Shown here piece after piece: positions 41,665 through 46,935 of a DNA stretch of 64,000 bases; the stretch's first letter is position 1, and the number at the start of each line of letters is the position of its first letter. The position numbers were made by a program, and so were the translations under genes. The notes under the pieces were generated by a model that saw nothing but the letters and a program-made list of their open reading frames with translations, had not been told where the DNA came from and did not search any database. The DNA is from a virus, in IMG/VR virus record IMGVR_UViG_3300032401_000690, positions 32,001-96,000 of that record. One strand, written 5' to 3'.

Positions 41665-41753
41665 TTAAATTATAGGTTTCCTCCGACTGTTATTTTTATA
41701 TCATACGAGACACAACTGGTGGGTGTCCCCCCAAATTATAGGTATCTTCCAAC
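41665..41753 (-). CRISPR. CRISPR-like mini-array 3 (degenerate): repeat 41718-41753, 30-bp spacer, truncated repeat ~41665-41687
   Basis: GTTGGAAGATACCTATAATTTGGGGGGACACCCACC plus half repeat GTCGGAGGAAACCTATAATTTAA. Confidence 0.55.
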
Positions 41754-42007
41754 CATATACTGAGTATATCCCTTGTTTGTGAGTCATCTAACCCAAAAAT
41801 GTTTTTAAAAAACGACCAAAGTCTTTCTCTATTTATAAACACAAACCCATTTTTAATATTATGACGATAGAAAAATAACGGTCTTAGGTCTCTATCAACA
41901 TAAAATGTTTTATCACCTTTAACCTCCGGAGTTAAATCACCAAACTCTTTGTGTAACCACTTAAACACCAATCTGTCCCTACTACTTTCAGTTATTATTA
42001 TTTTCAT
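41696..42007 (-). CDS. Array-associated small protein, paralog 3 (MKIIITES family)
   Basis: Paralog of 42286..42624; ends WLEDTYNLGGHPP, encoded by the repeat. Confidence 0.75.
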   Translation of the reverse strand: MKIIITESSRDRLVFKWLHKEFGDLTPEVKGDKTFYVDRDLRPLFFYRHNIKNGFVFINRERLWSFFKNIFGLDDSQTRDILSIWLEDTYNLGGHPPVVSRMI

Positions 42008-42015
42008 ATCATTTT

Positions 42016-42370
42016 AAATTATAGGTCTCTTCCAACCTTAGGTACGCTTGATTTGAATGGAAGAAACCATGTGTGAGTCCCCTCAAATTATAGGTCTCTT
42101 CCAACTTTTACTATTAATAAAAACATCCTATTCTGGGTGTGAGTCCCCTCAAATTATAGGTCTCCTCCAACTACGCCAAGCTTTGCAAAGGAGACCAAGT
42201 AGGTGTGAATCCCCTTAAATTATAGGTCTCCTCCAACTATAGAGAGAAAAGTAGAATAGCCCAAGTTGGTGTGAATCCCCTTAAATTATAGGTCTCCTCC
42301 AACGGAATTGGAAATGTAAAGGGTTGCCCAAGTTGGTGTGAATCCCCTTAAATTATAGGTCTCCTCCAAC
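42016..42370 (-). CRISPR. CRISPR-like mini-array 2: five 36-bp repeats plus truncated terminal repeat, five spacers
   Basis: Repeats at 42335-42370, 42268-42303, 42202-42237, 42136-42171, 42070-42105, half at 42016-42036; spacers 31, 30, 30, 30, 33 bp; consensus GTTGGARGAGACCTATAATTTRAGGGGAYTCACACC. Confidence 0.75.
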
Positions 42371-42624
42371 CATATAGTCAGAATCTCCTTTGTTTGCAAG
42401 TAACTCAGACCAAAAATAGAATCAAAAAATACCCAAATTCTGTCGTAATTTATATAAACATCCCTATTTTTTGAATCCTGGTAATACACAAATAACGGTT
42501 TTCGGTCCTCATCAACATAATATGTTTTATCATCTTTAACCACCGGAGTTAGATCACCAAACTCTTTGTGTAACCACTTAAACACCAATCTGTCCCTACT
42601 ACTTTCAGTTATTATTATTTTCAT
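42286..42624 (-). CDS. Array-associated small protein, paralog 2 (MKIIITES family)
   Basis: 112 aa; reads through repeat 1 (LEETYNLRGFTP) and spacer 1, stops inside repeat 2. Confidence 0.75.
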   Translation of the reverse strand: MKIIITESSRDRLVFKWLHKEFGDLTPVVKDDKTYYVDEDRKPLFVYYQDSKNRDVYINYDRIWVFFDSIFGLSYLQTKEILTIWLEETYNLRGFTPTWATLYISNSVGGDL

Positions 42625-42632
42625 ATCATTTT

Positions 42633-42786
42633 AAATTATAGGTCTCTTCCAACCAATTTACAGAAACTTGACGGTATATAATTGGGTGTGAGTCCCCTCA
42701 AATTATAGGTCTCTTCCAACGGGATTTGCATAATCACCTGCCCATGCACTGGTGTGAGTCCCCTCAAATTATAGGTCTCTTCCAAC
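42633..42786 (-). CRISPR. CRISPR-like mini-array 1 within the 3' end of the SOD-fusion gene
   Basis: Repeats 42751-42786 and 42685-42720, half repeat 42633-42653; spacers 30 and 31 bp. Confidence 0.7.
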
Positions 42787-44129
42787 CATACCTTCAGAAT
42801 CTCCTGTGTTTGCGGGCGTTTCAGACCAAAAATAGAATCAAAAAATACCCAAATTCTGTCGTAATCTACATAAATAAACCCATTTTTTTCATCCTGGTAA
42901 TACACAAATAACGGTTTTCTGTTCTCATCAACATAAAAGGTTTTATCACGTTTAACTACGGGTGTTAGATTTCCAAACTCTTTGTTTAACCACTTTAATG
43001 CGGATTTAAATTTAGGATCAACCGATTCGTTAATTGATTCTTTTTTACTTGTTCTCAAGTCATAAAGACTAGTAACGAATTCCCAATTAATATGGTTCCA
43101 AAATTTATTAATATATTGGTCTCGTTTATTTTTATATCTTAAATAATATGCGTGTTCCCAAAGATCTAATCCAAGGATTGGATATCCACCATTAACATCA
43201 TTCATTAATGGGTTATCTTGGTTTGGTGTTGTAATAATTTTTAATCTATTAGTTTTTGTTAAAACCAACCATACCCAACCTGAACCAAAACTATCCAAGG
43301 CGGCCTTATTAAATTCTTCTTTAAAATTTTTAAATGATTTGTATTGGTTTGTTATTTTATCTAAAAGATCCCCTTTTAAAGTTTGTTTTTTTGGGGTTAA
43401 CATTTTCCAAAACAATGCGTGATTAAATGCACCACCGGCATTATTTCTGACCTTTGTATTAAATTTAGTGATAGTTTTAATGATGTCCTCAAGTTCTATA
43501 TCACCTTTTCTACTTGATAATGCATCATTTAATTTTTTAACATAACCTTTATAATGTTTGTTATAATGAACATCCATTGTTTCAGGATCAACAAATTGTT
43601 TTAATGCCGAATATGAATAGGGTAATTTCTCAATACCAATTTTTTTCATTTCGGTAATGAATTCTTTTTGAATGTTAATTTTGTCTGTTAATACGATTTG
43701 TTCTGTTAAGATATCAATTCTATTTGAAATGGGTTTTAACCCCTCATAAACAATATTAACCATTTCGGGGTGTTCTTTTTCAAACATTTTAATTAATCGT
43801 CCAGCACCAGCATTTGCTTCATCCTCATTTTTTCCACCAATATCTTGACCAATTTCCCGTTTTAATATGGTCATTTGATGTTCGTGAATCCATTCGTGTG
43901 CAAGAGTTCTTAAGATATCTCGGTTCAACCGACCTTTAGTTAAAATTTTAATACCAAACTCATCACTTCTACTACCAGTCGTCATTTGACCTGTGCGATC
44001 ACCCAAGAAAGAAACTAATATATCATTCTTTAATGGATATTTTTCATTTAAAAACTTAATAAATTTTTTGGCAAGATCCTTACTTTCTTGGGACATTGAG
44101 CATTTAATATGTTTAATAGATACTTTCAT
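42636..44129 (-). CDS. sod: Fe/Mn superoxide dismutase fused to an N-terminal HExxH domain and a C-terminal array-associated domain
   Basis: HYNKHYKGYV, NNAGGAFNHALFW, FGSGWVWL, DLWEHAYY; N-term LAHEWIHEHQ...NEDEANA; C-term KWLNKEFG...WLEETYNL. Confidence 0.9.
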   Translation of the reverse strand: MKVSIKHIKCSMSQESKDLAKKFIKFLNEKYPLKNDILVSFLGDRTGQMTTGSRSDEFGIKILTKGRLNRDILRTLAHEWIHEHQMTILKREIGQDIGGKNEDEANAGAGRLIKMFEKEHPEMVNIVYEGLKPISNRIDILTEQIVLTDKINIQKEFITEMKKIGIEKLPYSYSALKQFVDPETMDVHYNKHYKGYVKKLNDALSSRKGDIELEDIIKTITKFNTKVRNNAGGAFNHALFWKMLTPKKQTLKGDLLDKITNQYKSFKNFKEEFNKAALDSFGSGWVWLVLTKTNRLKIITTPNQDNPLMNDVNGGYPILGLDLWEHAYYLRYKNKRDQYINKFWNHINWEFVTSLYDLRTSKKESINESVDPKFKSALKWLNKEFGNLTPVVKRDKTFYVDENRKPLFVYYQDEKNGFIYVDYDRIWVFFDSIFGLKRPQTQEILKVWLEETYNLRGLTPVHGQVIMQIPLEETYNLRGLTPNYIPSSFCKLVGRDL

Positions 44130-45972: not shown

Positions 45973-46935
45973 ATGAGTAAATTTGAATTATATGGTTTGT
46001 ATTGTCCGTTAACCAACGAAATAAAATATGTTGGTATAACAAAAAATGGATTAAATAAAAGATTAAATAGTCATTTAAGAAAACCAACTAACGAATTTAT
46101 TGGTAAATGGTTTAAAGATTTAAAAAACAATAATAACAGACCAATTATTAAATTAATAAAAGAGTGTGACTCTTACGAAGATTTATTACTTTCCGAATAT
46201 AATGAAATAAAAAAACTTAGGGAATTAAAAATAGATATTTATAATTTAACTGACGGTGGGGATATTAATCCAATGTTGGGTAAATCACACACTTCCGAGT
46301 CTAAACTTAAAATGTCTTTATTCCATAAGGGGAAAATAATAAGTGACGAACAAAGACAAAAACAAAAAGAAACGTTAAATAGGTTGTGGTCAAATAAATT
46401 ATGGTCTGAAAAAATGAAACAAAAAATGTCGGAAAATACATCGGGGAGTAATAACCCAAATTGGAAGGGAGGGGTAACTAATGAGAAATGTTTATGTGGT
46501 AATAAAAAGAGTTTTGGTAGAAAAACTTGTATGTCTTGTAGGGACGTAAATGGAATTAAAAATCCGTTTTTTGGTAAAAAACACAGCGAAAAAACATTAA
46601 ATATATTAAGAGAAAAAAGTAAAAAATATGGGAAGGAAAACCCTAATTTCAAATACGATATTAATGAAGAAGAATTATATAATTTATATATTAAAAATAA
46701 TAAAACAGTAGTTGAGATTAGTAATCAATTTAATTGTGCGATAAACACAATAAATAAAAAATTAAGACAATATAATATATATAAACCAAAATCTAATATT
46801 TATAATTTAGTGATTGATGATGTAAAAAATTATTTACTAAATAATTTAAACTATATTCAGATTGGTTATATCTATGGGTGTAGTAATAAAATTATACATA
46901 AATTTGTAAAAAAACATAACTTATATGTCAAATAA
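45973..46935 (+). CDS. GIY-YIG homing endonuclease with NUMOD3 and HTH
   Basis: LYGL...KYVGIT...R...H, NLTDGG, GKSHT, NPNWKGG, NPFFGKKH. Confidence 0.85.
   Translation: MSKFELYGLYCPLTNEIKYVGITKNGLNKRLNSHLRKPTNEFIGKWFKDLKNNNNRPIIKLIKECDSYEDLLLSEYNEIKKLRELKIDIYNLTDGGDINPMLGKSHTSESKLKMSLFHKGKIISDEQRQKQKETLNRLWSNKLWSEKMKQKMSENTSGSNNPNWKGGVTNEKCLCGNKKSFGRKTCMSCRDVNGIKNPFFGKKHSEKTLNILREKSKKYGKENPNFKYDINEEELYNLYIKNNKTVVEISNQFNCAINTINKKLRQYNIYKPKSNIYNLVIDDVKNYLLNNLNYIQIGYIYGCSNKIIHKFVKKHNLYVK

Follow-up and report, generated by a model that had tools for sequence, protein, structure and literature searches.

We find that genes of one protein family in a large phage end in a repeat-spacer array whose spacers bear the imprint of translation. 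In our best reading this is a gene-anchored, translated, cas-less CRISPR-like mini-array, for which we infer both the inserting enzyme and the function. The window (the whole stretch of DNA analysed, 64,000 nucleotides) comprises bases 32001-96000 of a 144-kb IMG/VR virus record with an estimated completeness of about 49% and a GC content of about 31%. Phage-typical genes surround the arrays, including those for a family-B DNA polymerase, an SNF2 helicase, a head-tail adaptor and a GIY-YIG/NUMOD3 homing endonuclease. These genes mark the contig as phage and rule out an ordinary bacterial CRISPR locus. A search of GenBank phages returned no similar record. The homing endonuclease gene (45973-46935, plus strand) adjoins the SNF2 helicase gene and lies about 2 kb from the arrays.

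On the minus strand of the window, three modules are arranged in tandem, each consisting of an ORF of about 100 aa from a single family and a repeat-spacer array. In each module, a 36-nt repeat has its first copy in the last 12 conserved codons of the ORF. This first repeat is followed by 1 to 5 further repeats with spacers of 30-33 nt between them, and the final repeat is truncated at about 23 nt. The features are as follows.

42636-44129, minus strand: 497-aa ORF with a metallopeptidase-like N-terminus (HExxH), an Fe/Mn superoxide dismutase (SOD) and family domain copy 1
about 42751-43049, minus strand: family domain copy 1 of the 497-aa ORF; its last 12 sense codons are repeat A-R1
42631-42786, minus strand: array A, whole
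42751-42786, minus strand: array A, R1
42721-42750, minus strand: spacer A1
42685-42720, minus strand: array A, R2
42654-42684, minus strand: spacer A2
42631-42653, minus strand: truncated repeat of array A
42286-42624, minus strand: ORF2, family copy 2, 112 aa; its core ends at Thr-Pro inside R1
42335-42370, minus strand: repeat B-R1, the last 12 conserved codons of ORF2
42172-42334, minus strand: spacers B1-B3 with the intervening repeats R2 and R3
42304-42334, minus strand: spacer B1, 31 nt
42268-42303, minus strand: repeat B-R2
42238-42267, minus strand: spacer B2, 30 nt
42202-42237, minus strand: repeat B-R3
42172-42201, minus strand: spacer B3, 30 nt
42014-42171, minus strand: older part of array B
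42136-42171, minus strand: repeat B-R4, 5' part like R1-R3 and 3' part like R5
42106-42135, minus strand: spacer B4
42070-42105, minus strand: repeat B-R5
42037-42069, minus strand: spacer B5
42014-42036, minus strand: truncated repeat of array B
41696-42007, minus strand: ORF3, family copy 3, 103 aa, the most diverged copy
41665-41753, minus strand: array C
41718-41753, minus strand: degenerate R1 of array C
41688-41717, minus strand: spacer C1
41665-41687, minus strand: truncated repeat of array C

The last 15 residues of ORF2 come from spacer B1 and the start of R2, and spacer C1 is kept in three relatives. Beyond the window, the end of the contig cuts off a fourth module (G000 143749-144147). 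The second spacer of this module is the same as spacer 2 of the seven-spacer array in L118, so this array probably continues and broke the assembly.

The original prediction had proposed looking genome-wide for more copies of the repeat, and these exist: the layout of gene end and array occurs four times in the 144-kb contig, and the complete 296-kb relative G001 has at least 12 copies of the gene with it. We further find the layout in 20 IMG/VR contigs (searched by the repeat core), at 41 loci (searched via the family protein) and in 26 metagenome stretches from freshwater and marine samples. In the metagenome scan, all arrays lie behind a family ORF, bar two that are cut by contig ends; none stands alone and none is near cas genes. 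The non-redundant set comprises 105 gene ends with 0-7 spacers each and 151 unique spacers, with lengths of 30 nt (39 spacers), 31 nt (23), 29 nt (20) and 32 nt (10). Across these 105 non-redundant arrays, the short direct repeats are regular and the spacers unique and uniform in size, as in CRISPR arrays. Array size shows a trend with the closeness of R1 to the consensus that is confounded by the many loci found via the repeat pattern and is given no weight here. Two arrays (L059 and L064, about 1408, plus strand) have the look of fossils, in that a repeat, one spacer and a decayed truncated repeat are kept in both contigs as one continuous coding tail with amino-acid substitutions.

The repeat codes for the last 12 conserved residues of the protein, Leu-Glu-Glu-Thr-Tyr-Asn-Leu-Arg-Gly-x-Thr-Pro. 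The 163 close homologues are alike up to Thr-Pro and then continue into unrelated tails of 10-11 residues. From the ORF2 array alone, the original prediction had read each unit as a different short C-terminus; the peptides it listed are correct, each unit being read in its repeat's frame. The protein reading is further supported by the observation that, in the repeat's frame, first and inner spacers alike have almost no stop codons among their first five codons. First spacers (n=78) have 2 stops there against 27-30 in the other sense frames (P = 2e-10), and inner spacers (n=72) have 6 against 25-34 (P = 2e-7). From codon 6 onward the stop rate is normal. This imprint suggests that every spacer has been translated as the protein's tail, and it provides a simple sequence test of each spacer's entry next to the gene. 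The inner spacers carry the same imprint and lie mostly outside the ORF frame, which suggests that each of them once adjoined the gene or can be brought there. Beyond the tail, the next repeat is read in a frame set by the spacer length: frame 0 gives the 12-residue motif again, frame +1 gives VGGDL-stop and frame +2 gives WRRPII-stop.

The protein thus appears to need a few residues of any sequence after Thr-Pro, so that about five codons must at least stay open. Neither particular residues nor hydrophobic ones are preferred in the tails, and spacer lengths do not favour in-frame values; nothing shows that the identity of the tail matters beyond the requirement for about five open codons. Ordinary coding DNA in the repeat's frame was considered as a source of the spacers and rejected, as they lack a codon-position signature. 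Their coding potential is intermediate between that of shuffled sequence and that of phage DNA and does not differ from that of reversed genomic DNA, and their strand bias amounts to a slight T excess with no G/C skew. The first base of the spacer, which is the wobble position of the Pro codon closing the repeat, is G in just 6% of the 151 spacers; codon bias or a bias of the insertion step could account for this rarity.

Members of the family number 163 close homologues and 687 cluster representatives at E values up to 0.001. No Pfam or PHROG model covers the protein, and the Atlas places the family in viral clusters. A confident AF2 model (pLDDT 82) consists of a helix, four strands, two helices and one final strand, and this strand 5 falls on residues 96-100, that is, on Thr-Pro and the first three tail residues. 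Foldseek and VIA-align searches found no relative of the fold in the PDB (Z below 4). Each genome holds from 4 to 13 or more copies of the gene. The SOD fusion seen at 42636-44129 is also present in G001 (507 aa), and many metagenome homologues are about 697-710 aa long.

Comparison of related arrays indicates where new units arise. Two loci whose ORFs are 99.3% identical (L068 and L071) differ by one gene-proximal unit. The near-identical contig L121 matches the window at 100% from A-R2 onward over 778 nt and is without spacer A1. The four-spacer array L024 and the one-spacer array L064 have the distal spacer alone in common, and L118 differs from the contig-end array in spacer 1 and shares spacer 2. 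The same gene-proximal pattern of difference is found in the protein pairs P0054/P0060 and P0014/P0036. All six comparisons thus differ at the gene end and have distal spacers in common, with no instance of the opposite. This points to polar growth, here at the leader-proximal repeat as in CRISPR arrays. Repeat variants in array B change gradually from R5 via R4 to R1-R3, the order that successive copies of R1 should leave; the mosaic R4 is compatible both with stepwise mutation of an R1 that was copied again and again and with a crossover.

These patterns are consistent with a mechanism in which the array would grow at its gene-proximal end by a new segment of 29-32 bp, the 36-bp gene end being copied along with it. 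Every such segment would be translated as the C-terminal tail of the protein, and only inserts free of stops in about the first five codons would survive, leaving the imprint on all spacers, the inner ones included. The inserting enzyme is most likely a host CRISPR adaptation integrase acting on a gene end that resembles the 36-nt, type VI-B-like repeat of Flavobacterium, and array transcripts could then load host Cas13b as decoys or guides. Cas1-Cas2 integration makes a fixed 36-bp duplication, adds a new segment of ruler-like size and always inserts at the upstream end. We know of no other mechanism with these three properties. The combination of 36-bp duplication, ruler-sized insert and upstream-end insertion therefore makes host adaptation enzymes acting on a repeat-like gene end our first choice, although we hold it at somewhat less than an even chance. 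Against it stand the lack of cas genes, host repeat, protospacer and hairpin in the searches described below, the weak assignment of the host, and the 66-nt period in B1-B3.

Off-target integration by Cas1-Cas2 is documented in experiments with E. coli, where it yields neo-CRISPR arrays. To our knowledge, these have been seen solely upon laboratory over-expression in a bacterial chromosome. The phage arrays resemble them in that a repeat-like site at a non-CRISPR locus is duplicated around a spacer-sized insert, and differ from them in being natural, recurrent, located in phage genomes and anchored on a gene family. By the same route the arrays might be functionless scars, left by host Cas1-Cas2 acting off target at the repeat-like gene end and tolerated where the protein is not cut short. 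The insertion evidence serves this proposal as well as it does a functional host-integrase reading, and the small size of the arrays (0-7 spacers), their fast turnover, the missing protospacers and the lack of RNA-level constraint on the repeat agree with it. Scars are hard to reconcile, however, with a layout kept in many lineages, in freshwater and marine samples and in many copies per genome, or with the lack of self-derived spacers, given that spacers gained in an infected cell should come mainly from the DNA of the phage itself. We regard such scars as very unlikely. An insertion of the spacer type (36-bp duplication plus a segment of about 30 bp) that is used or tolerated on the 3' end of the gene family, or machinery of the phage's own that is unrelated to Cas1, appears to us unlikely but deserves a place among the candidates.

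Recombination at the repeats is also visible. The ORF body of L121 is about 8% diverged from that of the window while the part downstream of the repeat is identical, and L068 has a junction at a repeat where the SOD-fusion gene's array runs straight into the terminal unit of an array of the ORF3 type, the intervening genes being missing. The original prediction had suggested that recombination between the direct repeats swaps C-terminal peptides; L121 and L068 bear out the recombination. A recombination or cassette system independent of Cas is our second choice. In such a system the copied gene ends would act as homology tracts and the array as a store of alternative tails, with units stacked, lost and exchanged by homologous recombination among family copies and co-infecting phages; B1-B3 would then be the tails of three ORF2 alleles with the same start. 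Besides the two junctions, the equal imprint on inner and first spacers, the joint-like structure of R4, the 4 to 13 or more gene copies per genome, the start of tails with Thr-Trp in three independent arrays (those of the window, L023 and G001) and the failure of all searches for cas genes, host repeats and protospacers are as a cassette system would have them. Recombination moves units, however, and creates no new 30-nt segments, whereas the 151 spacers are mutually unrelated and their narrow range of 29-32 nt points to a ruler. The clean one-unit change between L068 and L071 leaves the ORF unchanged, none of the six comparisons has an internal deletion or a distal difference, and the indifference of the tails to residue and in-frame length gives no sign of selection for tail identity. 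On balance we consider the cassette system possible but doubtful. The original prediction had set the cassette against a guide-RNA model, but a cassette is compatible with a role of the same units as guide or decoy RNA.

The case for host adaptation enzymes draws on the likeness of the phage repeat to those of Flavobacterium. A Flavobacterium array, L106, has 17 repeats of 36 nt with a period of 65-67 nt, and 17 of 37 alignment columns are invariant between its repeats and those of the phages, including both ends, the T-run and the GGG core. The CRISPR-2 array of F. columnare likewise has a similar 36-nt repeat and 30-nt spacers (PMC5395568), and the phage repeat is identical to the published one at 23 of 36 positions by hand count. 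Type VI-B arrays of Flavobacteriia and the phage arrays agree in repeat length (36 nt), spacer length (29-31 nt) and period (65-67 nt). In both, the repeat starts with GTTG, ends in CACA-x-C and runs from a T-run into a GGG core, the spacer-repeat orientation of the phage arrays being inferred from the GTTG start. In both, new units are found at the upstream, or 'leader', end and the last repeat is degenerate. In contrast to type VI-B loci, the phages are without cas genes, a protein-coding gene serves as 'leader' and first repeat, the spacers are translated, with a stop-codon imprint, and the repeat has no conserved hairpin.

Indeed, no consensus hairpin is found across 99 repeat variants, and single repeats fold no better than shuffled ones. 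Variation in the repeat sits at codon wobble positions, so that selection on the protein together with recent copying suffices to explain its conservation. A general phage promoter motif within the repeat was rejected, as the core occurs at chance level outside the arrays, and neither sigma-70 nor terminator signals rise above shuffled sequence. Rfam gives only sub-threshold matches to CRISPR-DR8, on the opposite strand.

Searches for the machinery of a CRISPR system gave no positive result. Five phage records, one of them complete, contain no Cas1, Cas2 or known defence protein, PADLOC returned no match in the large proteins of G001, and the phages have no tracrRNA-like anti-repeat. Pattern scans for near-exact repeats found no host array with this repeat in 185,579 GTDB species genomes, in 401 Flavobacterium genomes or in metagenome contigs; these scans recovered phage arrays only, and no host with the same repeat beside cas13b. 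The sole genome match to the repeat is a phage fragment binned in the MAG of an uncultured Flavobacterium. This binned fragment, together with a twofold excess of the Bacteroidota promoter motif seen in G001 only, points weakly to Flavobacterium as the host. The phage records thus hold no cas genes, a conserved ORF takes the place of a non-coding leader upstream of spacers with a translation imprint, and no host repeat matches, for which reasons we do not file the arrays as a member of the CRISPR-Cas systems.

Protospacer hunts were likewise empty or at chance level, with none found locally, in GenBank phages or, for four spacers, in IMG/VR, and the two large genomes contain no match to any of their own spacers, approximately 24 in all. 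Full-length protospacers for each spacer had been named in the original prediction as evidence that would speak against alternative tails. None was found for B1 in IMG/VR or for the whole array in GenBank phages. Pairs of spacers with cores of 12-14 nt at different offsets number 3 against 0.6 expected, which is not significant. The third spacer of one array (L129, about 5487, minus strand) matches the antisense strand of the SOD part of the fusion gene in G001 (240762-240784) over 21 of 22 nt; the other 9-10 nt of the spacer are at odds with the conserved SOD motif, and IMG/VR contains no exact source for it.

Among known phage-borne elements, RNA anti-CRISPRs (Racrs) are non-coding, have their own promoter and match the host repeat by at least 90% (Camara-Wilpert 2023, PMC10651486). 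Like Racrs and virus-borne mini-arrays, the phage arrays are cas-less copies of CRISPR-like repeats in phage genomes. Unlike Racrs, they have their repeat inside an ORF and up to 7 spacers, with no host repeat at 90% and no promoter signal above chance. The survey of viral solitary repeats was made with ORFs masked and lists no type VI case (PMC10651486), and a class of arrays anchored on genes would therefore have been missed. A role as decoys is plausible, since extra crRNA titrates Cas13b and its over-expression lowers Cas13b defence about 1000-fold (PMC13187072). Should host Cas13b take part, the arrays would be the first case of RNA-level counter-defence or guide hijack to be proposed for type VI-B; should no Cas protein take part, the phages would hold CRISPR-like arrays made by an unknown mechanism.

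The arrays also share with diversity-generating retroelements the confinement of variation to the C-terminal end of a phage protein. Unlike those elements, they have no template repeat and no reverse transcriptase (RVT_1) in the five phage records, the spacers are unrelated overall, and whole segments are replaced in place of adenine-specific substitution. With spacers under translational selection and a gene as 'leader', the line between coding sequence and CRISPR array is blurred. If the unlikely reading holds in which spacer-type insertion is used or tolerated on the gene ends, an adaptive-array mechanism would continually rewrite the C-terminal tail of a protein and archive past tails. Under this reading, and equally under that of phage machinery unrelated to Cas1, these would be the first natural arrays both translated and CRISPR-like, with possible use as a model for the origin of arrays from coding sequence.

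One array departs from the rule that spacers are unrelated. As the original prediction had noted, the three consecutive spacers B1-B3 have a common start: B1 equals B2 over the first 9 nt and B3 agrees at 7 of the 9, and past this prefix the three are unrelated to one another. Two 30-mers would agree over 9 nt at a fixed position with a chance of about 4e-6. Among the 151 unique spacers, the first 6 nt are the same in 16 pairs, where 5.0 are expected and 300 shuffles gave at most 12, and suffix sharing in the same set is at expectation (6 pairs against 5.0). The fixed-position probability and the shuffle counts rule out chance as the source of the common prefix. Prefix sharing inside one array is seen in 1 of 159 within-array pairs, which belongs to the array of ORF2, and the B1-B3 prefix is thus an exception confined to this array, with no bearing on the array family as a whole. 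The same five spacers as in the ORF2 array recur in L121.

The prefix codes for Thr-Trp-Ala/Ser at the position of the predicted last strand of the family protein. B1-B3 are the three gene-proximal units and the sole ones behind the R1 repeat variant; B4 and B5 lie behind older variants, and their starts are unrelated to the prefix. The start ACT TGG (Thr-Trp) also occurs in two unrelated arrays, in the second and last spacer of L023 and in the only spacer of an array near 241.8 kb of G001, whereas about 0.07 occurrences are expected from composition. B1 and B2 further have the same Pro wobble base and the same third codon, beyond what selection for Thr-Trp would require, so the 9 nt look inherited. 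We suggest that B1-B3 are the three newest units of the ORF2 array and that their prefix may have been inherited, re-selected, or both. Since they share one repeat variant and the same first three tail codons, the conserved unit here is 45 nt long and not 36. Their period stays at 66-67 nt despite these 45 conserved nt, and a shifted Cas1-Cas2 cut would give about 75 nt. B1-B3 fit either of two histories: an extended unit of 45 nt was copied and the new part was shorter, or a tandem duplication was followed by replacement of the distal 21 nt.

For these three units, the duplication proposal holds that a 66-nt first unit was duplicated in tandem and its distal 21 nt or so were replaced fast, the rest being held by selection on the protein. 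The retained period of 66-67 nt with 45 nt conserved, the single repeat variant across the three units and the departure of B3 at 2 of 9 prefix positions, as for drifting inherited sequence, are what such a history would leave. The distal parts of B1-B3, however, show random-level identity directly beside 45 identical or near-identical nt, which point mutation cannot produce, their differences are not restricted to one base, and the case is unique among the 159 within-array pairs. Nor was mutagenic machinery found, the five phage records containing no reverse transcriptase. We rate this history as quite improbable even for B1-B3. As a general rule, duplication followed by hypervariation of about 21 nt, as once proposed, is not supported, since spacers in all other arrays are new over their full length of about 30 nt and share no prefix with their neighbours.

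Some members of the family extend the module beyond a single domain. The family profile matches two long proteins at several separate places, P0306 (1868 aa) at 9 and P0268 (760 aa) at 5; these may be multi-domain forms or arrays read in frame. At L017 (about 8155 and 7804, minus strand), the truncated last repeat is joined in frame to the next family domain through the linker Ser-Glu-Ser-Ile-Asn-Glu, giving a beads-on-a-string reading frame across modules.
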